From NCBI RefSeq assembly GCF_016903815.1, contig NZ_CP069973.1: a stretch of 64,000 bases of DNA. One strand, given 5' to 3'. A program made the translations under genes and the position numbers. Source of the DNA: Escherichia coli. GTDB taxonomy: Bacteria > Pseudomonadota > Gammaproteobacteria > Enterobacterales > Enterobacteriaceae. This document shows, in pieces, positions 47,847-64,000 of this stretch. Each line of letters opens with the position of its first letter. Within the stretch, counting starts at the first letter, position 1. The notes below the pieces were generated by a model. That model searched no databases. It was not told the origin of the DNA and saw nothing but the letters and a program-made list of their open reading frames with translations.

Positions 47847-48064
47847 GTGTAACTACCTTAATCATGGTAAACGACCAAATTTGATGTCGTTAACCTAACA
47901 TGGCGATTTTTTTAATGGACTGAGGATGTTTGTGCAGGTGAAGGATTATTTTGCGGTATTGTTTTGCCTTGAGCAAAAAAGTCCTTTTCTAGGAAATACC
48001 TAAAATCTGATACAGTCAAACTCAATATTTATTGTCAGAGAATGAATAAAAGCGGGGTGTTTTT

Positions 48065-48703
48065 TTGCCGCTGCACTGCTTCAGGAATGTATTCACCCCT
48101 CATAAAGGCTTCAATGACTCTCCGCCATGGCAAACATGCCATAGGGGGAGATTTTCAGATAATGATAATAATGTTCGCCCACATCCGATTGTAAATGGAT
48201 CAGAAAAACGGCCGCGTATTGCCCTGCTGAATGTGGATTACGTCACCAGTTTTGAACTGCCTTTTCGCTTGCTGCTTACCCGGACACCACAACTGATTGC
48301 CGCGCTGCGTGAAGAATGGGGCATCAGCCAGAAAAATGTGGTGTTTAACGATAAACGGTTTGGTTGCGTGTACAGCCTGAAGGCCAGCCTTTCTGGTGTG
48401 CCGGATACATTCCGGTATCATCTGTCTCACCGTATTCGTCGCGTGGTTGGGAATGAAAACACATCATTGCCATATCAGCAGGTTGCCCGGGAAGTGAAAG
48501 CGCCCCGTGAACGGCTGAAGTATGCACTGGAGGCGGGTTTACTGGTGACTGCACTGGACGGCCTGTTCTGGTTTGGCAGTCAGCGTATTGCGGCTGATGT
48601 TCTGAGGCTGAGAAAGGCCGGAATGCCGGTGGTGACCACGACCGTGGAGGTGCACGATAACCTGACAGGAACAACCCGCAAAGTACCGGCATACCATCTC
48701 TGA
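48065..48703 (+). CDS. Hypothetical protein (start uncertain)
   Basis: 212-aa ORF, no family recognised. Confidence 0.4.
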   Translation: MPLHCFRNVFTPHKGFNDSPPWQTCHRGRFSDNDNNVRPHPIVNGSEKRPRIALLNVDYVTSFELPFRLLLTRTPQLIAALREEWGISQKNVVFNDKRFGCVYSLKASLSGVPDTFRYHLSHRIRRVVGNENTSLPYQQVAREVKAPRERLKYALEAGLLVTALDGLFWFGSQRIAADVLRLRKAGMPVVTTTVEVHDNLTGTTRKVPAYHL

Positions 48704-48798
48704 TACAACCATCAAGGGGAATATTGCTCTGGCAGCAGCAGTACGACATTCTTTATACTTTATCCCCGTGCCTGAAAATATGTGCTAAGGAAACGGGA

Positions 48799-49032
48799 AT
48801 GGCAAGGTCCGATTATGATATTATTAATCTGTCTCTGAAACATGAACTGAATGAGTGGCTGACAGAGAGAGGTTATGCCGGACTGGCGGATAACCGGAAC
48901 CGCTTGGCAGAGGTGGTTACCCGGAAATTGCAGGACAGCTTTTATATAAACGTTTCCTGGGATGCGCTGAACACGGCATACAGTGAACACCCTGAGTGGT
49001 TTTCAGGGCTTGTCTCCGGAGATGAGAATTAA
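48799..49032 (+). CDS. Small hypothetical protein (77 aa from the Met with AAGGA Shine-Dalgarno; ORF extends to 48724)
   Basis: ORF with plausible ribosome-binding site. Confidence 0.4.
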   Translation: MARSDYDIINLSLKHELNEWLTERGYAGLADNRNRLAEVVTRKLQDSFYINVSWDALNTAYSEHPEWFSGLVSGDEN

Positions 49033-49084
49033 TAAGTGGATTATGCTGCCATCAGGCAGTGTGATTGCCGGCAGGGATTTCGTT

Positions 49085-49276
49085 TTATTCTGTTTCTTCC
49101 CGGGGGGCGGGTTTGAATTTTCCCAGAAAGTTGTACATCGGTCGCATGCAGGGATGCGGATAGCCGTCCCGCATAAACACCACCCGGGTTTCCTCAACAC
49201 TGGTCACGGTGACAAGCGCACCATGATCGTCTTTGTATCGCTGATTGACTTTCGGTAATGGAACATCTTCTGACAT
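49085..49276 (-). CDS. Small hypothetical protein (63 aa)
   Basis: ORF only. Confidence 0.35.
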   Translation of the reverse strand: MSEDVPLPKVNQRYKDDHGALVTVTSVEETRVVFMRDGYPHPCMRPMYNFLGKFKPAPREETE

Positions 49277-49906
49277 AAATTTTAGTACGGTAACAGTTAA
49301 CTAAATTTTCATGTGGTAGCACTGAATCAGGAGACTGCGTTTCCTGATGTGCGCTGTTAATTTTCTGTTTTTACGAAACATTTTCCCCTTCTTCCTGTAT
49401 ATTTTATTGCGCTCCTCCTTTCATGTCCTTCCCATATCCTGAAACTCACTTAAATGCTGTTGAATCGTCATGCATTGCAATTTTCAATGACTGAAATCAA
49501 AAATTGCTATTTTTTTAGCTAACCAACTGTATTAAAAGCATTCAGTGGAATAATTTTCTGCACTTTTCCATTAATTATGGTTATAAATTTTGCAATGTGC
49601 TGTTTTTGCGATATATGGCAGAATAAAGAACTGTTCATTTGTGTTATATCGATCGATAAATCTGTCACATTGCTGTAGTTCAGATCATTATTCTATAATG
49701 ATCAAAAATAAGTCAGCTAAAAATTGGCAGATTTATTGCTCAGCATTCTGGTACCGGTTGATGCGGGTAAATACCGGAAGGGCGGTAGCGTGCCATCGCA
49801 AAACATGGTGGGAGGTATCGTCAGGAGGCTGGTGATTGTTGGTATGACATGAATAAAAGGTTTTTCGTTTGACTGGAAAATTATGTTGCAGGAACGAGAG
49901 GGCTGA

Positions 49907-50257
<351 letters not shown>

Positions 50258-50357
50258 CCACTTCAGTTTTTTTATTTCTGAATAAAGCGACATCCACGAT
50301 ATAACGTCGTGGGTGTCGGTGATGATTCTTTTTTTGTTCGCAGATTAAGGTGCGTTT

Positions 50358-52145
<1,788 letters not shown>

Positions 52146-52538
52146 TACCGGACCATTTCTTTATTCCGGACTTTCCCCATACTGTTATTATCAGGTTTAT
52201 TTAATTCGCCATGAACCCGTTATTTAACGATATTCAGATGCGTCTTTTTCATCTGAACCACTCGCCGTACTCCTGGTACTGGAATGTAAGATTCATACCT
52301 CTGGAAGCCGTGTATATTGGCAACGATACCTGTCATATCACCATTACCTGTAATCAGTCCGGTTTTCACTGAGCGTTATATCAGAAACCTTAATGAGCTG
52401 TTACCGGTTCTGAAACGGCGGTGGGATGTGACACCGGCAATCATCTGCGCAGTGGAATACCTTTCCTGGGTAACGGTATCGCACTGACTCTCTCCCTATA
52501 ATTAACAATGGTTTAATACCTAAACACTGAATCTGCCG

Positions 52539-52979
52539 ATGACTTCTGAAGTGAAACTGAAAACCGGTGGTGACCCCCGGTCATTACCGGATTATGCTGC
52601 CCTGCGCGATGAAATCAGCAAACTGACCCACCCGGCACGCCCTGATGTGGACTGGCGTTACGTGGAAACGCTCTGCCTGCGTCTGTATGAACACAATGGC
52701 GTGGAATTACAGACGGCATCCTGGTACACCATTGCCCGGATGCATACAACAGGGTTAAGTGGTCTGAATGAAGGGCTGGCTCTGATTGCTGCGCTGACCC
52801 GGCATCACTGGTCAGTGATGTGGCCGCTGAATACACACTCCCGGCTGGAAATTATTACCGGTCTGTTCAACCGTCTGCAAAAAACGCTCCGGGCCATGCC
52901 TCCGGATAACCGTGACAACCTGCCCCTGCTGTATCAGACCGAAACATTCCTGAAGACACTGAGTGATCTCCTTCCATGA
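52539..52979 (+). CDS. ImpA_N-domain protein (T6SS-associated TssA/VasL-like N-terminal domain)
   Basis: [40 protein letters not shown] fits the remembered ImpA_N pattern. Confidence 0.45.
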
Positions 52980-53114
52980 AAATACGCAGGCTTGGCACGA
53001 ACTTAAACAGAGCAGTAAAGTGGTAGACTGGCCCCCTGAATCTCCAGACAACCAATATCACTTAAATAAGTGATAGTCTTAATACTAGTTTTTAGACTAG
53101 TCATTGGAGAACAG

Positions 53115-53480
53115 ATGATTGATGTCTTAGGGCCGGAGAAACGCAGACGGCGTACCACACAGGAAAAGATCGCAATTGTTCAGCAGAGCTTTGAACCGGG
53201 GATGACGGTCTCCCTCGTTGCCCGGCAACATGGTGTAGCAGCCAGCCAGTTATTTCTCTGGCGTAAGCAATACCAGGAAGGAAGTCTTACTGCTGTCGCC
53301 GCCGGAGAACAGGTTGTTCCTGCCTCTGAACTTGCTGCTGCCATGAAGCAGATTAAAGAACTCCAGCGCCTGCTCGGCAAGAAAACGATGGAAAATGAAC
53401 TCCTCAAAGAAGCCGTTGAATATGGACGGGCAAAAAAGTGGATAGCGCACGCGCCCTTATTGCCCGGGGATGGGGAGTAA
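53115..53480 (+). CDS. insC: IS2 transposase InsC (orfA)
   Basis: [56 protein letters not shown]. Confidence 0.95.
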
Positions 53481-54343
53481 GCTTAGTCAGCCGTTGTCTC
53501 CGGGTGTCGCGTGCGCAGTTGCACGTCATTCTCAGACGAACCGATGACTGGATGGATGGCCGCCGCAGTCGTCACACTGATGATACGGATGTGCTTCTCC
53601 GTATACACCATGTTATCGGAGAGCTGCCCACGTATGGTTATCGTCGGGTATGGGCGCTGCTTCGCAGACAGGCAGAACTTGATGGTATGCCTGCGATCAA
53701 TGCCAAACGTGTTTACCGGATCATGCGCCAGAATGCGCTGTTGCTTGAGCGAAAACCTGCTGTACCGCCATCGAAACGGGCACATACAGGCAGAGTGGCC
53801 GTGAAAGAAAGCAATCAGCGATGGTGCTCTGACGGGTTCGAGTTCTGCTGTGATAACGGAGAGAGACTGCGTGTCACGTTCGCGCTGGACTGCTGTGATC
53901 GTGAGGCACTGCACTGGGCGGTCACTACCGGCGGCTTCAACAGTGAAACAGTACAGGACGTCATGCTGGGAGCGGTGGAACGCCGCTTCGGCAACGATCT
54001 TCCGTCGTCTCCAGTGGAGTGGCTGACGGATAATGGTTCATGCTACCGGGCTAATGAAACACGCCAGTTCGCCCGGATGTTGGGACTTGAACCGAAGAAC
54101 ACGGCGGTGCGGAGTCCGGAGAGTAACGGAATAGCAGAGAGCTTCGTGAAAACGATAAAGCGTGACTACATCAGTATCATGCCCAAACCAGACGGGTTAA
54201 CGGCAGCAAAGAACCTTGCAGAGGCGTTCGAGCATTATAACGAATGGCATCCGCATAGTGCGCTGGGTTATCGCTCGCCACGGGAATATCTGCGGCAGCG
54301 GGCTTGTAATGGGTTAAGTGATAACAGATGTCTGGAAATATAG
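53438..54343 (+). CDS. insD: IS2 transposase InsD (orfB)
   Basis: 301-aa ORF with the IS3-family DDE core; overlaps insC in the frameshift arrangement. Confidence 0.95.
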
Positions 54344-54355
54344 GGGCAAATCCAA

Positions 54356-55084
54356 GTGGCTTTACCGGAAGCCATGGTGAAGGGATATATCACCCGCCTG
54401 GAGAACCAGCCTGTGCAGGGGGAAGTATCGTCTCCGGTAACGCTACTGGCGCAGGCACTCAGGCTTGAAGCTCCGGATGTGCAGGAACATCAGACCCTGC
54501 CGCACTCCCGTCTGGTGTATGTTGTTTCTGAAACAAAAACAGAGCCCACACTCTTCCTTCAAAAATCCCCGCTCACGTTTCTGAAAACGTTTGTTACAGG
54601 TGTCTGTACGGCATTGCTGGCGGTCTGCGTGGCCATTCCGGGATGGCAGTTTCTGACACAGCCATCACCGGCGGAGCAGCAACTCAGGGCGCTGCTGACA
54701 CCCTCACCGGATGTGCTTTCAGCAGACCAGATGATGCAGCTCAGCAGAACACTGTTAAATCATGCGTCAGAGTGGATAACCCTTTCCGGTCAGCAGATAA
54801 CGCGACTGACAGAATTCCCCCCGGCATACAACCTGCAACGCAGTGTGCAATTGCTGCAGCAACTGATGGTACTTTTCCCCGACAATCCTCGTGTTCAGGA
54901 AATGGTGGATAACTGGCAGAAGAGTGCAAGGAGTCGTGCGCTCCCGGAAGAGGCGATGACTGGCTGGAACGAAGGCATGACCCGCTTACAGCTGTTGGCT
55001 GAGCGCCTGAACCGTCCGGATGAACAGCGGGGAAAATACATGACGGTCAGTGAGCTGAAAACGGAGGTGTCTGGCATCATGTAG
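54356..55084 (+). pseudogene. Membrane protein gene split by IS2 (5' 60 bp at 52964..53023, remainder here); possible VasL-like C-terminal part
   Basis: Reading frame is continuous across the IS2 target duplication; contains a transmembrane segment. Confidence 0.55.
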
Positions 55085-55275
55085 GCTTTTAACCGGCATA
55101 TCCTGGCAGAAGAACAGTTGTGTCACTATGGTGAAGTCCGCAACCAGAATGGAAGCGAGCAGCAGCAAAAACAAATGAAAGATGCATTTGTTAAGCTGAT
55201 TCACGTTTACTGTTTTATATAAAGCCTTTAGGATGTGGGGGAAGGGGAGTGTTGCAATTTATTCGGTGAGATAGT

Positions 55276-55983
55276 TTGTTTGTGGAGTGTTTAAGCGCTT
55301 TTGGATGTTCGTCTGTTGTTTCGAATAGTATGGTGAATATGAATGGTAAATATAATGTCAGGAGTGAATTGTTAGCTCGTTGTATCGGAACTGGTAGATT
55401 GAAAGGAGATGTGAGAAGTGATTTTATTGGGTTTAATGGTAGTAAACAGGTAGGTTATGTTTTATTAACTTTGTTCTTAACGAAAGTAATAAATTCTGAT
55501 TTGCTCTCTCATTATCGTATATTTAATCGTTTTTTGCATTATGAGAGAAAAGTTATGGACATATATAATTCTTTGAGTGATATAGAAGTTGATTGTATTT
55601 GCCAGGAAGTGATGGCTATATATGAACATACTCAGCGATGCTGCAACGAAAAGAAAATCACAACTATCCAGTTAGGCAGGAAACTTAATGGCAGGTATGC
55701 AGATACGATTGCTGAGTTAAAAGAAACAGCAGAGATAAGAGGGGAGGATGTGATTTCTTTTGAGATGGATATATTGAATTCTTTTAATGATGCGGATGAA
55801 TATCACGGACGTGTTAAACTGGAGTTGGATATACCTGCTTCAGATATATTATATTGCCATGATTTTATTGATTCAAAACATGTAAACTCCTGGTTGGTTG
55901 AACCACATGAGTGGGTGGTTATAAATCGTTCTCTCAATGGGATTGTTACAGTGCCAGTATCATCAATAAAGATTCTTTATTGA
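55276..55983 (+). CDS. Hypothetical protein, AT-rich gene (start uncertain)
   Basis: ORF only. Confidence 0.45.
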   Translation: MFVECLSAFGCSSVVSNSMVNMNGKYNVRSELLARCIGTGRLKGDVRSDFIGFNGSKQVGYVLLTLFLTKVINSDLLSHYRIFNRFLHYERKVMDIYNSLSDIEVDCICQEVMAIYEHTQRCCNEKKITTIQLGRKLNGRYADTIAELKETAEIRGEDVISFEMDILNSFNDADEYHGRVKLELDIPASDILYCHDFIDSKHVNSWLVEPHEWVVINRSLNGIVTVPVSSIKILY

Positions 55984-56123
55984 TAAATATGTTTGTAATA
56001 TGTTTTATATGTTCATCAGGATGAAAGTAAGCAATTTTAGTAGTGGCTAATTAAACGTCATTTAATGTTTGTTGCTATATGTTGAAAGCATAAACAGGTT
56101 TCTTTTGCATAAAGTAAAAATAA

Positions 56124-57356
56124 ATGAATGATAATTTTTTAACGGAGAAAGTCCTTACTGGAGAGAATGTTCTGCGTGCAGCAATTGCTCGTATTGAGTG
56201 GATTTTTGAAATATTTCCATCAGTTTGTCTCTCTTTTTCCGGTGGTAAAGATTCCACCGTGCTTTTCCATCTTGTGGCTGATGTGGCCCGCAGGAAAAGA
56301 CGTCGTTTCTCTGTACTGTTCATTGACTGGGAGGCTCAGTACCAGTGCACCATTGAACATATTCAGAAGATGCGGGAAATGTACCATGATGTGACGGAAA
56401 CCTTTTACTGGGTGGCGCTTCCCCTGACCACGGTAAACGGTGTCTCGCAGTTTCAACCGGAGTGGATATGCTGGGAGCCTCGTGTGACCTGGGTTCGCCA
56501 GCCACCGGAAGAGGCCATTACGGATATGGCGTATTTTCCCTTTTACCGGTATGCCATGACGTTTGAAGAATTTGTTCCGGCATTTTCTTCCTGGTTTGCT
56601 GGCAACCGGTGTGGAGTGGCAGTGCTGACCGGTGTCCGGGCGGATGAATCCCTCAACCGCTTTATGGGACTGGTGTCCCAGCGCAAACTGAGATATGCCG
56701 ATGATAAGCCTTGGACCACGGCATCGCCTGAAGGGTTTTACTACACTATGTATCCGCTGTATGACTGGAAAACTCGTGATATCTGGATATATCACACCAG
56801 AACCCGTGCCATCTACAATCCCCTGTATGATCTGATGTACCGTGCCGGCGTACCGTTACGCAACATGCGTGTCTGTGAACCTTTTGGTCCTGAACAACGT
56901 AAGGGACTGTGGCTTTACCATGTTCTGGAACCGGAAACCTGGGCCAGGATGTGTGAGCGGGTGTCAGGGGCTGCCAGCGGGGCACTTTATGCCAATGAAA
57001 GCGGGGCTTATTTTGCCCTGCGTAAGCGCATATCAAAACCAGCCCATCATACCTGGCGCAGCTATGCGATGTTTCTGCTGGATGTGATGCCGGAAAGAAC
57101 GGCAGAACATTACCGCAACAAGATAGCTGTCTATCTGCGCTGGTATCAGACGCGGGGCTTCCCGGATGACATCCCGGATGAACAGGAGAATGACCTGGGG
57201 AGCCGGGATATTCCGTCCTGGCGACGTATCTGTAAGACTCTCATAAAGAATGATTTCTGGTGCCGTACCCTCTCCTTCAGTCCGAACAAACCCCGGCACT
57301 ATGAACGTTATCTGCAGCGTATGAAAGAAAGGAGGAAGGAATGGGGGATTCTGTGA
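56124..57356 (+). CDS. PAPS-reductase-family PP-loop protein with C-terminal extension (IbrA/YbdN-like)
   Basis: PP-loop motif SFSGGKDST; 410 aa; followed by an overlapping ParB-like gene. Confidence 0.75.
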   Translation: MNDNFLTEKVLTGENVLRAAIARIEWIFEIFPSVCLSFSGGKDSTVLFHLVADVARRKRRRFSVLFIDWEAQYQCTIEHIQKMREMYHDVTETFYWVALPLTTVNGVSQFQPEWICWEPRVTWVRQPPEEAITDMAYFPFYRYAMTFEEFVPAFSSWFAGNRCGVAVLTGVRADESLNRFMGLVSQRKLRYADDKPWTTASPEGFYYTMYPLYDWKTRDIWIYHTRTRAIYNPLYDLMYRAGVPLRNMRVCEPFGPEQRKGLWLYHVLEPETWARMCERVSGAASGALYANESGAYFALRKRISKPAHHTWRSYAMFLLDVMPERTAEHYRNKIAVYLRWYQTRGFPDDIPDEQENDLGSRDIPSWRRICKTLIKNDFWCRTLSFSPNKPRHYERYLQRMKERRKEWGIL

Positions 57357-57979
57357 CACCGGAGATACTGAGCAACATGATTCGTCAGTACTTCAGCCAG
57401 GAACGACCAGAAGAAGAGGCCATACAGGCCCTGAATCATCTGCGCAGGGTGCTTCATGAGGTCAGTCCATTTGCACAGGAGCCTGTGGACTGTGTGCTGT
57501 GGGTGAAAGCAGATGAGGTGGTGGCCAACGATTATAACCCCAATGTCATGGCGCCGGGTGAGAAGAAACTGCTGAAACATTCACTGGAGCAGGATGGGTT
57601 CACGCAGCCTGTGGTTGTCTCGGAAGAGAAGGAGCATTATCTGGTCGTGGATGGTTTTCATCGTCAATTACTGGGCAGGGAAGCAGGTACGGGAAAACGC
57701 CTGAAGGGCTGGTTGCCAGTGACCTGTATTAATCCGGAAAGAAAGGGACAGGCCTCACGTATTGCTGCAACCATTAGACATAACCGGGCCAGGGGGAAGC
57801 ACCAGATAACTTCAATGTCTGATATTGTCAGGGACCTGTCGCGGCTGGGCTGGACGGATGAACGTATTGGTACGGAGCTGGGTATGGACCAGGATGAAGT
57901 TCTCAGGTTGAAACAGATTAGCGGGCTGACGGAGCTGTTTCTGGAAGAGGATTTCAGTCCGGCATGGACGATTCGCTGA
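57341..57979 (+). CDS. ParB-like nuclease-domain protein (IbrB/YbdM-like)
   Basis: ParB/Srx-type motif VVDGFHRQ; 16-bp overlap with the upstream gene. Confidence 0.7.
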   Translation: MGDSVTPEILSNMIRQYFSQERPEEEAIQALNHLRRVLHEVSPFAQEPVDCVLWVKADEVVANDYNPNVMAPGEKKLLKHSLEQDGFTQPVVVSEEKEHYLVVDGFHRQLLGREAGTGKRLKGWLPVTCINPERKGQASRIAATIRHNRARGKHQITSMSDIVRDLSRLGWTDERIGTELGMDQDEVLRLKQISGLTELFLEEDFSPAWTIR

Positions 57980-58018
57980 GACCGTCATATATGTATATTA
58001 TTTCAGTGAGTTAATGTT

Positions 58019-58327
58019 TTGAGCAGGAAAAAGAGTACCCCGGAAGTCGTGGAATACATGGTTGCACAGAAGCTGGAGGCTGCGGGTTGCTGGCGCAGAG
58101 CTTCCGCCCGCTGGCTTTTTGTTATGGGAAATGTTGAATGTACAGAAGCACAACGGGAGTGGTTGTTGTTGCGCAGGAATTATTGCCTGGCGCAGATATC
58201 GTCCCCGCCGCTACCTGAAAAGCTGGATATCAGCGAAGTGGCGAAAGCTGCAGATGCCACGCTGAGGCGAATGGGGATTGCCAGTCCGTCCGGGGAGGTA
58301 TTCAGAAAAGGTACACCGGTCTGTTGA
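58019..58327 (+). CDS. PerC-family transcriptional regulator-like small protein; start uncertain (TTG 58019 or ATG 58058)
   Basis: KLEAAGCWRRASARW resembles the conserved PerC-family core; from memory. Confidence 0.5.
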   Translation: MSRKKSTPEVVEYMVAQKLEAAGCWRRASARWLFVMGNVECTEAQREWLLLRRNYCLAQISSPPLPEKLDISEVAKAADATLRRMGIASPSGEVFRKGTPVC

Positions 58328-58347
58328 TATTCAGGTAACAGGTATTA

Positions 58348-58992
58348 ATGATGAAGAAAGGAATGGCAAACAGTATATCAATGACATGGCAACTTTTATG
58401 CGATGATCATGGTTTTACCCGGGAGCACTACAATCAGCTGAAGAAATTCAGCCCGGAGGCATTACGTGAAATTATTGCTGAAATAGCCTGCTGCCATCCG
58501 TCAACCAGTATATTGCTCAGGAATAAGTGGCTGACACTGCCGGAGGATATTCCGGAGCAGGTTACCCGTGAATACGAACGAAGAATACAGAACTGTCCAT
58601 CTTTCAGGAGCGAGAAAGAGGCGGAATCCTGGCTAAATGAACTGTTTTTTGCTGTGATTGCGCCGCTATACCGGGTTGTCCCCGGACAATCAGAACAGGT
58701 TGAATCCTTTGTTCTGCAGCTTATTGCCGAACAGGAGCGGGTTTGGGAGCTTATTCTAACCAATGATGGTTATTCATGGCATTGCGCACTTTATGATATA
58801 TTATTTCATCTGGTTTTACGAAATATGGAAGACCAGCCTGAACATCAGAGACAGCGAATAACAAAAATACTTAATGAGTCCGATACAAGGCGGGTTGCAG
58901 AAGAGATTAAATTCCGGATTCAATATCTTCAGGATGAAGAACAAAAGAGAGTTTTAAGTGAGTTGGTAAATGTCCTGATTTCAAAAAGATAA
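58348..58992 (+). CDS. Hypothetical protein (214 aa)
   Basis: ORF in the same-strand cluster. Confidence 0.5.
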   Translation: MMKKGMANSISMTWQLLCDDHGFTREHYNQLKKFSPEALREIIAEIACCHPSTSILLRNKWLTLPEDIPEQVTREYERRIQNCPSFRSEKEAESWLNELFFAVIAPLYRVVPGQSEQVESFVLQLIAEQERVWELILTNDGYSWHCALYDILFHLVLRNMEDQPEHQRQRITKILNESDTRRVAEEIKFRIQYLQDEEQKRVLSELVNVLISKR

Positions 58993-59056
58993 AACATGTC
59001 GGAGTAATTTTTCTATATATTAAAAAAACAGGTTTGTATTACCATAAAGGAGATCG

Positions 59057-59380
59057 GTGAATAACCGTTATTGGATGATCTCCTTCCATAAAAATACGCG
59101 CAATCTAACGGTTCGCTCTGTGCCAAAAAAAGACATTGCTCACAATATCGAGTTAATCATTCGGCCGTTGAACATTCCCATTGAAAAATTTCTCAGTATA
59201 GAATATACCAATGTTGAGGGCATTCCTCTTACATCTCGAAGGATAACTATCATGGGTCTAAAACCAGGTCCAAAACCAATTGCTAAGTCAACAGGAAAAC
59301 CGGATCAACGCCGACGCGATAATAAAGATACTCCTGGCAATACTCCGGGATTAAAGCCAAGTAAGTCCACAGGTAAGTAA
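59057..59380 (+). CDS. Hypothetical small protein with Lys/Pro-rich C-terminus; start uncertain (GTG 59057, ATG 59075 or ATG 59252)
   Basis: ORF only. Confidence 0.3.
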   Translation: MNNRYWMISFHKNTRNLTVRSVPKKDIAHNIELIIRPLNIPIEKFLSIEYTNVEGIPLTSRRITIMGLKPGPKPIAKSTGKPDQRRRDNKDTPGNTPGLKPSKSTGK

Positions 59381-59388
59381 AAAATAAG

Positions 59389-59412
59389 GGTATAAATACT
59401 TATTTATACCCT
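59389..59412 (-). terminator. Rho-independent terminator (perfect 11-bp stem GGGTATAAATA / TATTTATACCC) with T-run on the minus strand
   Basis: Hairpin read directly from sequence. Confidence 0.65.
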
Positions 59413-59427
59413 GACTACATATCCAGT

Positions 59428-60210
59428 CTACTGAAGGTGTTTCTGCAGCCAGATGCACGTTCCTTCTATATCATACGCCTGTGCCCCATACCCTTTAGCA
59501 AGCAAAGTCTCTGGTAAATACTCGTCATATTTATCCAGATACTTGTCGGGAACAACTGCAGCAAGCTCAAACTCTGAAGGTAGCCCCGACAATAGCATTT
59601 TCTTAAGTGCACGCTGGACAGAGGCAACGCCTGAGTCCTCTACCTCTATCACACCTGCAAATGAACTGGCTTTAAAGCCACAACGTATAATCAGGGACGT
59701 AATTGTATTGACAATTTTATCCCCCATCCACGGGATCACGTAGCAGTTCTGACCACTGGCAATAAAACAGTCATTTTGTAGATTGTAGCGTTGGAAGTTG
59801 TCACTTCCTTCCGCGAAGAGGCTTCTGGCTGCGGCATCAGCATAATCGACTCTCTTGTTGCCTACCGCGATACGGTAATCATTTTCCCTGTAGATAGTGA
59901 GCATTTCCTGGCGAACAACATCATGAACAGACATCCCGGTACCACTGAATAGTGGCGGCTGACCGCCTTTAGTCGTCTCAACATAGATAACCTTTTTTTC
60001 AACCTCGATCTCTGTCACTTTCCAGCGCCGTCCGCCGAAGATGATGTGCTGCTCCGGCAAAAGTGGGGAGTCTACAGGCACTGTGCCAAGAGTTCGGTTT
60101 CCCGTTACAATGCGAAACTCCTCAGGTGTATTGAATACGGCATAAAACGTGTAGTGATTAGTCAGCTTCTCCCCCTCAGCCCCGACAACTATTTCACCGC
60201 TGGTTAGTTG
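59428..60210 (-). pseudogene. 3' remnant of a gene truncated by the IS629-like element; function unknown
   Basis: The ORF's first ~14 codons are read from IS sequence, so the native 5' end is missing. Confidence 0.5.
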
Positions 60211-60604
60211 AGTGAGCAGTACGGGGTCGGACCGGTATGCAGCGAACTGCATATTGCCCCGTCAACGTATTACCATTGTCAGCAACAGCGACATCATCCG
60301 GATAAACGCAGTGCCCGTGTGCAGCACGATGACTGGCTGAAGAGAGAGATACAGCGCGTATACGATGAAAATCATCAGGTGTACGGTGTGCGTAAAGTCT
60401 GGCGTCAGTTGTTACGGGAAGGAATCAGGGTGGCCAGATGTACAGTGGCGCGCCTCATGGCGGTTATGGGACTTGCCGGTGTTCTCCGGGGTAAAAAGGT
60501 CCGTACGACCATCAGCCGGAAAGCCGTTGCCGCAGGCGACCGCGTAAACCGTCAGTTCGTGGCAGAACGTCCTGACCAGTTGTGGGTGGCTGATTTTACT
60601 TACG

Positions 60605-63344
<2,740 letters not shown>

Positions 63345-63389
63345 TGAGTTCACAGATAAAACACTCTCCAGGAAACCCGGGGCGGTTCA

Positions 63390-63532
63390 TTCCTAAAAAG
63401 ACATGTCTTGCCCAATATACTCAACATGAACTAGATCTGGTTGCTGCTCAGCTAAACAACAGACCGAGAAAGACACTGAAATTCAAAACACCGAAAGAGA
63501 TAATTGAAAGGGGTGTTGCATTGACAGATTGA
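63390..63532 (+). pseudogene. IS30-family transposase, C-terminal fragment
   Basis: Translation ...[29 protein letters not shown] matches the IS30-family C-terminal motif. Confidence 0.6.
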
Positions 63533-63538
63533 ATCTAC

Positions 63539-63874
63539 AGTAGCCTTTTTTAATATTTCATTCTCCATTTCAATGCGTTGTAGCTTTTTCCTCAGCTTAC
63601 GTATTTCGATTTGTTCTGGTGTTATCGGAGAGGCTTTTGGTGTTTTGCCCTGATGCTCATCACGCAGTTGTTTGACCCATCTTGTCATTGTGGAAAGGCC
63701 AACATCCATAGCTTTGGCGGCATCTGCCACCGTGTATTTCTGGTCAACAACCAGTTGAGCGGATTCGCGTTTAAACTCTGCGCTAAAATTTCTTTTTTTC
63801 ATTGGAGCACCTGTGTTGTTCTGAGGTGAGCATATCACCTCTGTTCAGGTGGCCAAATTCAGTGTGCCACTTCA
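63539..63874 (-). mobile_element. IS911 fragment (left inverted repeat and 5' part of orfA)
   Basis: [49 protein letters not shown] matches IS911 OrfA, diverging after ILKKAT; terminal ...AGTGTGCCACTTCA. Confidence 0.8.
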
Positions 63875-64000
63875 AGCCGGGAGCGGCGTCAGCCAGTCTC
63901 CCTTTACCCGCGCTTTTTCGGAAAGCCCACCCCAATGTTTTTCTCCTACACCCCAGCCGGTCAGCAGGACCTTATCCCCGGTCTGATATTCAGGATGTGA

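Follow-up and report, generated by a model that had tools for sequence, protein, structure and literature searches.

The conserved ibrA-ibrB pair of an Escherichia coli tRNA-Phe island, a likely mosaic of separately mobile modules

Introduction

Six open reading frames (ORFs) on the same strand, confirmed by the ORF listing at positions 55276-59380 of a 64,000-nucleotide stretch of Escherichia coli DNA (contig NZ_CP069973.1; the whole stretch is referred to below as the window), raise the question of whether they form one functional system or are neighbours of separate origin. Two of them, ibrA and ibrB, encode a PP-loop ATP pyrophosphatase and a ParB/Srx-fold protein, and a first-pass annotation of the DNA had suggested that this pair, the regulator gene perC and the flanking genes for unknown proteins (here orf1, orf5 and orf6) may together constitute an uncharacterised modification or restriction-like system. 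IbrAB stands for 'immunoglobulin-binding regulator', and IbrA and IbrB of E. coli ECOR-9 reportedly activate prophage eib genes, an observation ascribed to Sandt, Hopper and Hill in 2002. RefSeq already names, in the island, the IbrA product as 'phosphoadenosine phosphosulfate reductase', along with an 'IbrB-like domain-containing protein' and a PerC family regulator. IbrA/IbrB is therefore an already named, known and widespread pair in a known type of island, while literature searches found no mechanistic study of it.

The analysis presented here indicates that the region is probably a mosaic: modules that move separately have come to lie side by side at a hotspot for cargo in a tRNA-Phe island, between vasL and the Shango defence system. 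In such a mosaic, ibrA-ibrB would be self-contained, perC and orf5 would form a second pair, orf1 would be lone cargo, and orf6 with the hairpin at its end would belong to the Shango flank.

Results

Conservation of the ibrA-ibrB pair

The start of ibrB lies 16 nt inside the end of ibrA, an overlap that bears out the translational coupling proposed earlier. A cross-species scan (one genome per species, a single protein as query) returned 14 loci, 13 of them with enough flanking sequence, from Klebsiella, three Citrobacter, Yersinia, Edwardsiella, Cedecea, Enterobacter, Victivallis, Martelella and one short contig of a metagenome-assembled genome; Edwardsiella carries five ibrAB pairs in four loci. 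The two genes were adjacent in 13 of 13 loci, which derive from 12 other species. By tblastn, perC, orf1, orf5 and orf6 were detected in none of these 13 loci, and all-against-all clustering of the neighbouring ORFs in the other-species loci revealed no other real neighbour gene conserved with ibrAB. Conservation of the flanking genes with the pair had been set beforehand as the neighbourhood test, and with 0 of 13 other-species loci the proposed multi-gene system is not supported. In other species the pair is an isolated cassette amid fimbrial, transporter, regulator and housekeeping genes, and in many Enterobacterales it resides away from prophages.

More distant contexts were sampled instead through viral contigs (n=80, IbrA identity 31-92%). 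An IbrA relative is present in 224 phage records, and in 70 of the 80 viral contigs an IbrB gene is no more than two ORFs away from that of IbrA, often with an overlap of 4 or 16 nt. The pair is likewise present in annotated phages of Streptococcus, Mycobacterium and Flavobacterium. The phage copies lie among genes for replication, recombination or packaging, with helicases, RusA, exonuclease and terminase as neighbours, and one copy at 91% identity is annotated as 'Co-activator of prophage gene expression IbrA/IbrB'. The pairing of a PP-loop enzyme with a ParB/Srx protein, as recognised in the first-pass annotation, is thus a translationally coupled arrangement conserved from Enterobacterales to phages.

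In 42 of the 80 viral contigs the IbrA/IbrB genes come with an unannotated third domain of ~120 aa, whose consensus includes WKISCEHNLTNESMNRIAWLGQAAVC. In 23 loci the domain is encoded on its own beside ibrAB, and in 19 it is fused to the C-terminus of IbrB; examples are found in the viral loci L050-L123 (e.g. L105:7190-7651) and at L041:5549-5947, which is gp106 of mycobacteriophage Gaia. The domain, termed C2, had no NCBIfam, PHROG or PDB match, and was not found in the enterobacterial loci or in the window. The place of C2 in phages is after IbrB; PerC was tried as a divergent form of it and rejected (hhalign probability 0.3%). The fusion of the ~120-aa domain to IbrB in some phages explains why the E. 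coli IbrB matches phrog_2159 (9.4e-82) over profile positions 1-225 of 365.

Sequence features of IbrA and IbrB

IbrA carries the PP-loop motif LSFSGGKDST, in agreement with the first reading of the sequence. Pfam places PAPS_reduct at residues 34-89 and 165-240 and DUF3440 at 242-390, and the PHROG matches are phrog_2302 (1.5e-83) and phrog_15645 (2.8e-138). The residues invariant among 13 homologs are FSGGKDS, D68, E70, W123, R125, G170, R172, E175 and S176, followed by R179, P211, D214, W215 and D219, and the motifs GxRxxESxxR and PxxDWxxxD of the phosphoadenosine phosphosulfate (PAPS)-reductase superfamily are retained. No cysteine is invariant among the 13 homologs, and phage members have Ala or Ser at the position of the enterobacterial C251. 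As the IbrA family lacks an invariant cysteine, DndC-like sulfur insertion is unlikely, and the chemistry of IbrA is probably of another kind. Against the NCBIfam CysH/CysD models IbrA scored far under the curated cut-offs (TIGR02057, 33 bits vs 254; NF002537, 34.6 vs 154).

The DGFHR-like motif reported for IbrB is real: the protein contains VVDGFHRQ, and DGFHR is invariant in 13 homologs, down to 34% identity. The invariant motifs are NxxNPN, DGFHR and TxRHNRARGxH, then ELGMDxDEVLRLKQ. Pfam ParB_N was matched only weakly, at E=0.013, and phrog_6831 was matched over residues 158-191, where it marks a helix-turn-helix (HTH). The DGFHR box of IbrB resembles that of ATP-using members of the ParB/Srx group (DndB, sulfiredoxin) and not that of the CTP-clamp ParBs. 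In E. coli, purifying selection on the pair is strong (dN/dS 0.06-0.17 for ibrA and 0.04-0.08 for ibrB). A search of the PDB returned no close solved relative of either protein.

Upstream of ibrA, about the last 45 nt are common to the E. coli island variants, and nothing is common with other species. No parS-like or conserved operator repeat was found 5' of ibrA, where the repeat search gave chance-level pairs, and no consensus promoter was scored in 55984-56123. Between ibrA and orf5 no plus-strand terminator was predicted.

Nested occurrence in E. coli

The E. coli census covered 5426 complete genomes, 2029 of which (37%) carry ibrAB. The ibrB-perC-orf5 junction is contiguous in 1024 genomes, with variants at 80-100% identity, the orf5-orf6 junction occurs in 555, the orf1-ibrA junction in 462, and the whole block from orf1 to orf6 in 446. 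perC-orf5 thus accompanies about half of the E. coli ibrAB carriers and orf1 under a quarter. The 446 full copies are 93-100% identical, which points to shared island descent and not to independent retention; bases 55000-59500 are 100% identical to strain 7/2 and hundreds of E. coli genomes. When the window was compared with the same partner strains (L002, L003, L006 and L007), dS was 0.2-0.6 for ibrA and ibrB vs 0.01-0.2 for perC, orf5 and orf6. This several-fold gap between the two halves argues for recombination between modules, with breakpoints inside the apparent operon.

The slot 5' of ibrA is occupied by different genes in different strains. Strain S42 and O157-type strains carry a helicase matching the Mokosh MkoA and MkoC models, strain N62 has an OLD-family nuclease plus orf1, and a Canadian food isolate has a type II Zorya system.

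The neighbouring genes

orf1 has few relatives, with five protein clusters in 5.8 billion sequences. A 63% identical homolog in Serratia follows tssA/vasL of the type VI secretion system (T6SS) and a Kiwa system, with no ibrAB, and a 33% homolog sits in the transfer region of an integrative and conjugative element. orf1 is accordingly a lone, independent cargo gene and no partner of IbrAB. The invariant residues R114, S148 and E188-x-x-E191 follow the order expected for an ADP-ribosyltransferase, a weak resemblance from which orf1 possibly has an ADP-ribosyltransferase-like fold; this is a lead, not a demonstration. orf1 may represent a new stand-alone ADP-ribosyltransferase-like cargo gene of defence hotspots, a second and smaller lead from this locus.

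The PerC-like regulator of the first-pass annotation is a well-supported assignment (PF06069, E=6.7e-35, model positions 5-89 of 90); in RefSeq the gene starts at 58058 and encodes 89 aa. orf5 follows after a gap of 20 nt. Few sequence relatives were found (39 clusters, of which those with a name are all from Escherichia, and 36 representatives); the core LLRNKWLTxPxDIL is conserved, and dN/dS of orf5 is 0.2-0.9. The AlphaFold2 model of orf5 is all-helical, with a predicted local distance difference test score of 81 and a predicted template-modelling (TM) score of 0.75. Foldseek against AFDB50 returned a 214-aa 'SpnT protein' that is 96% identical and long SpnT proteins at E 1e-4 to 1e-3 (TM 0.58-0.62), and phmmer reached ~460-aa relatives at E 3.5e-5 to 5e-4, the N-terminal domain alone being common. 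A fold search of the PDB gave generic helical repeats alone (E>0.4).

Homologs of orf5 occur elsewhere without ibrAB. One at 54% identity lies directly 3' of vasL, without perC, a second at 44% (L031:7001-7917) overlaps a perC gene by 4 nt in reversed gene order, and a third at 47% (L036:1037-2827) is the second gene 3' of a perC, which in turn comes after vasL. The PerC homologs beside orf5 homologs in L031 and L036 are 49-58% identical to that of the window, and L025 keeps an ibrB fragment with perC and orf5. Because PerC and the SpnT-like protein co-occur in three arrangements, two of them without ibrAB, the evidence suggests that they form a two-gene module of their own, and the functional partner of orf5 is probably PerC rather than IbrAB. 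Overexpression of SpnT leads to elongated cells and nucleoids, and its function is poorly defined (E. coli spnT: PMC11064533).

At the 3' end, the cluster had been thought to stop at a strong terminator, and this did not hold. The T-tract of the hairpin at 59387-59412 is on the minus strand, and the stem is AT-rich (3 GC pairs of 11, dG about -12.8 kcal/mol); the hairpin therefore terminates the convergent, truncated helicase gene and not the plus-strand cluster. In a second hairpin, at 59047-59085 (dG -15.4 kcal/mol, z -2.8), downstream codons are paired with the Shine-Dalgarno sequence (AAGGAG) and the GTG start codon of orf6; this structure may prevent orf6 from being translated, or may mark a recombination joint, as the breakpoint of the Shango flank falls at about 59119. 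The sequence from 59119 onward recurs beside sngC in genomes without ibr genes and is unannotated there. The orf6 region is frameshifted in strain EC476, where it is likewise unannotated, and O157-type strains have orf5 without orf6. With its start in a hairpin, its recurrence with the helicase and its frameshift in EC476, orf6 is a doubtful gene and a doubtful member of the cluster, and its 3' 260 nt and the terminal hairpin belong to the Shango flank. An intact SngABC is found at the same position in strain S42.

Island setting and gene inventory

The setting is a tRNA-Phe-associated island with a P4-type integrase, many insertion sequence (IS) elements, a group II intron and a decayed type VI secretion cluster. 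The features of the region are collected in Table 1. The TTG at 55276 had been taken as the start of orf1; RefSeq places it at the ATG at 55339, which is the most likely start. The description of the flanks as AT-rich stands, with a guanine-plus-cytosine (GC) content of 32-35% over orf1 and 35-42% over orf6 and the 3' end of orf5, and so does that of the flanking proteins as unknown, since orf1, orf5 and orf6 had no Pfam, NCBIfam, PADLOC or PHROG match.

Table 1. Features of the ibr region and its borders (positions in the window).
Feature	Position	Strand	Description
tssA/vasL 3' fragment	54734..55084	+	RefSeq VasL domain protein; edge of island backbone at the cargo hotspot, outside the ibr module
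orf1	55339..55983	+	214 aa, GC about 34%, RefSeq hypothetical protein
Intergenic AT-rich stretch 5' of ibrA	55984..56123	+	Promoter presumed here
ibrA	56124..57356	+	PP-loop ATP pyrophosphatase, PAPS-reductase superfamily, C-terminal DUF3440
ibrB	57341..57979	+	ParB/Srx-fold protein, C-terminal helix-turn-helix
perC	58058..58327	+	PerC-family transcriptional activator, PF06069
orf5	58348..58992	+	All-helical SpnT-like protein, 214 aa, RefSeq hypothetical protein
Hairpin over orf6 start	59047..59085	+	Inverted repeat I6
orf6	59057..59380	+	107 aa, GTG start, Lys/Pro-rich tail, RefSeq hypothetical protein; doubtful gene
Intrinsic terminator hairpin of sngC	59387..59412	-	T-tract on minus strand
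sngC C-terminal fragment (Shango helicase)	59428..60219	-	PADLOC SngC 1.4e-71; RefSeq pseudogene; cut by IS3-family element; defence cargo outside the ibr module

The N-terminal part of tssA/vasL lies at 52539-52979 (NCBIfam match TssA) and is separated from the 3' fragment by IS2. A hotspot downstream of the T6SS gene tssA/vasL (window 52539-55084) is common to E. coli and Serratia. Depending on the genome its cargo is NERD-UvrD, Zorya II, a Mokosh-like helicase, OLD nuclease, Kiwa, a type I restriction-modification system, Shango, ibrAB or perC/SpnT-like genes, and variable cargo likewise comes after this vasL end in L007, L022, L025, L029, L036 and L039. Four of these loci (L007, L029, L036 and L039) have a gene of ~204-220 aa with HTH repeats after vasL, which is missing in the window; it was considered as a relative of IbrB or orf5 and rejected, as by blastp the four copies are homologous to each other and not to IbrB or orf5. 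Within the T6SS remnant, at 50358-52145, an intact gene has been inserted that encodes a NERD plus UvrD-helicase protein (595 aa, PADLOC candidate C3a187, E=4e-140). On the other side, the IS3-family element that cuts sngC is itself split by a group II intron (window 59428-63347; ltrA at 61276-62784, RF00029 at 62788-62874), and an Rfam scan of 48000-64000 matched the group II intron alone.

Discussion

The claim of a new multi-gene system falls, and this is worth knowing. The pair at its centre occurs in about 37% of complete E. coli genomes, is carried by phages of at least four phyla, and is under strong purifying selection. The options for its function are narrowed: two self-sufficient genes (three in many phages) encode an enzyme with its ATP-pyrophosphatase site intact and no cysteine conserved, and a partner predicted to bind DNA. 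The description of a vasL-downstream hotspot in E. coli and Serratia, and of a PerC/SpnT-like pair as a separate module, are additional gains.

A DNA-directed enzymatic role may reasonably be assigned to the pair. IbrB would bind DNA via its C-terminal HTH and a nucleotide via its ParB/Srx-type domain, with the DGFHR and RHNRARGxH motifs, and could thereby position or gate IbrA. IbrA in turn would spend ATP on adenylating a nucleic-acid or nucleotide substrate, and the resulting mark or product may alter the expression of mobile-element genes, which would fit the reported activation of eib. As a tentative proposal, possible though held with considerable doubt, IbrAB may be a compact two-protein machine that modifies nucleic acid or transforms nucleotides, combining an NTP-gated DNA binder of ParB/Srx type with a PP-loop enzyme that adenylates without the help of a cysteine. 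It would make an epigenetic mark or a signalling nucleotide not described so far, by which mobile-element genes are turned on or host defences are opposed; phages and islands would spread the pair across phyla, and many phages would add the ~120-aa domain. A precedent for a ParB-like NTPase working with a DNA-modifying enzyme is provided by DndB with DndC (PMC10853773).

Several points weigh against this picture. The cross-species sample is small, with 13 loci that are nearly all from Enterobacterales, because a single-protein scan finds close relatives alone. The third domain in 42 of 80 viral loci may mean that the pair is not fully self-sufficient everywhere. Finally, about half of the carriers have perC and orf5 next to ibrAB, and the two genes respond together with ibrB, so that a functional link particular to this lineage has a minor probability.

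The last point underlies the view that ibrA-ibrB-perC-orf5 is a genuine four-gene operon of the E. coli lineage, in which PerC and the SpnT-like protein would be an output or control arm of IbrAB. The junction is contiguous in 1024 genomes with variants at 80-100% identity, the perC-orf5 gap is 20 nt with no internal plus-strand terminator predicted, L025 retains an ibrB fragment with perC and orf5, and ibrB, perC and the next hypothetical gene (hyp3) are co-induced in Shiga toxin-producing E. coli (STEC) on epithelial cells, where the copy is of the O157 type (PMC7649339). However, about 1000 E. coli genomes and 13 of 13 other-species loci have ibrAB without perC or orf5, PerC and orf5 homologs pair without ibrAB, and the two halves differ several-fold in dS, so that we regard such an operon as unlikely. 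The missing plus-strand terminator and the co-induction in STEC indicate that the four genes are probably co-transcribed in this E. coli lineage, by mere juxtaposition.

A different division of labour would make IbrB a ParB-type regulator or DNA clamp, like KorB or BisD, and IbrA an accessory nucleotide-handling enzyme with no covalent modification involved. The reported phenotype is gene activation, and IbrB has an HTH. ParB-fold regulators of mobile-element genes are also known (bioRxiv 10.1101/2025.10.10.680097). On the other hand, the protein has DGFHR and not a GERR-type CTP box, which groups it with DndB and sulfiredoxin, no conserved repeat resembling a binding site was found upstream of ibrA, and the strict co-conservation and coupling with an enzyme whose PP-loop is invariant favour chemistry over binding alone. 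Regulation by binding alone thus appears rather improbable. The same can be said of the idea that the pair is an accessory of phage DNA replication or packaging, for instance marking or processing DNA at packaging, with the chromosomal copies as leftover morons that have incidental regulatory effects. The pair does lie beside the large terminase in mycobacteriophage Bernardo and Flavobacterium phage FCL-2 and beside helicases in Gaia and Streptococcus phage PY1, and helicases, RusA, exonuclease and small terminase recur among the viral neighbours. Leftover genes would nevertheless fit poorly with the strong purifying selection on the chromosomal copies (dN/dS 0.04-0.17), their persistence as isolated cassettes away from prophages in many Enterobacterales, and their retention in 37% of complete E. 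coli genomes.

Phosphorothioate modification of DNA by a Dnd/Ssp-like module, for defence or self-marking, is suggested by the PP-loop fold common to DndC, SspD and BrxP, with weak PADLOC matches of IbrA to BrxP (1.2e-7) and DndC (1.8e-4), by a ParB-like partner that parallels DndB (PMC10853773), and by the location in a defence island. This reading is very unlikely, given that the IbrA family has no invariant cysteine and Ala or Ser for C251 in phages, in contrast to the dyad of DndC, that neither a cysteine desulfurase nor DndD/E, SspB/C or a restriction partner is conserved nearby, that the pairs of other species lie amid ordinary chromosomal genes and not in defence islands, and that lytic and temperate phages, too, commonly carry the pair. 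Least of all is it credible that orf1, ibrA, ibrB, perC, orf5 and orf6 are together one uncharacterised modification or restriction-like system, since the shared strand, short gaps and ibrA/ibrB overlap, the full block in 446 genomes and its place among defence systems are set against flanking genes found in 0 of 13 other-species loci, the replacement of orf1 by Zorya, a Mokosh-like helicase or OLD nuclease in other strains, orf1 and orf5 homologs that stand alone elsewhere, an orf6 that goes with Shango, PADLOC matches that are weak and confined to the PP-loop, and a 93-100% identity among the 446 copies that reflects shared descent.

Comparison with known systems

The cluster does not correspond to a catalogued anti-phage defence system: in PADLOC-DB v2.0.0, orf1, IbrB, PerC, orf5 and orf6 matched no family and IbrA gave weak PP-loop matches; among the neighbours, the NERD-UvrD candidate C3a187 and SngC were matched. 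Assimilatory PAPS/APS reductase (CysH) has a catalytic C-terminal cysteine motif, whereas no cysteine is invariant among the IbrA homologs. A partition ParB with a CTPase clamp would have a GERR-type CTP box, whereas IbrB has DGFHR and scores 19.5 bits against the Noc cut-off of 315, and the partner gene parA is not present in the RefSeq annotation of the window. In BREX type 4, the match of BrxP extends over residues 33-98 of IbrA alone, the PP-loop (E=1.2e-7), and BrxC, PglZ and BrxL are not nearby.

The analogy to DndC and SspD drawn in the first-pass annotation holds at the level of the fold alone. Like IbrAB, DndB/DndC (and SspD, BrxP) are borne on mobile elements, with a PP-loop enzyme of the PAPS-reductase superfamily paired with a ParB/Srx-fold protein bearing DGxHR, and the PP-loop fold with its invariant FSGGKDS is shared by IbrA; the cysteines, the partner genes and a full-length match to the hidden Markov models are not. 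DndC has a characteristic cysteine dyad (PMC10853773), in contrast to IbrA, which has DUF3440 in place of the C-terminal region of DndC. The PADLOC matches to DndC (E=1.8e-4 and 1.3e-3) comprise no stretch that passes alone, and DndA/IscS, DndD/E, SspB/C or a restriction partner are neither in the window annotation nor conserved neighbours in 19 loci. As the defining features were tested and found missing, IbrAB lies outside the Dnd, Ssp, BREX, CysH and partition-ParB families.

Another ParB-like ATPase, DpdB, assists the DNA-modifying DpdA in 7-deazaguanine modification of DNA (PMC12839542). DpdA is, however, a homolog of tRNA-guanine transglycosylase, whereas IbrA is a PP-loop enzyme, and the genes of the queuosine pathway are not present here. 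The window perC encodes a full-length PF06069 protein, as do the PerC/Pch regulators of enteropathogenic (EPEC) and enterohaemorrhagic (EHEC) E. coli; the latter are found on the EPEC adherence factor (EAF) plasmid or a lambdoid prophage, and the window gene in a chromosomal island beside ibrB and a SpnT-like gene. SpnT is known from the mobile quorum-sensing element spnIR of Serratia marcescens; the long AFDB50 proteins of that name have 400-484 aa (E about 1e-4), of which orf5 represents the N-terminal ~200 residues alone.

The closest likeness is to the IbrAB island of ECOR-9, which has the same overlapping gene pair, with PAPS_reduct plus DUF3440 in one protein and a ParB-like domain with an HTH in the other, and in which the neighbours alone vary by strain. 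The pair in the window belongs to the same family as ECOR-9 IbrAB, and probably resides in the same type of island.

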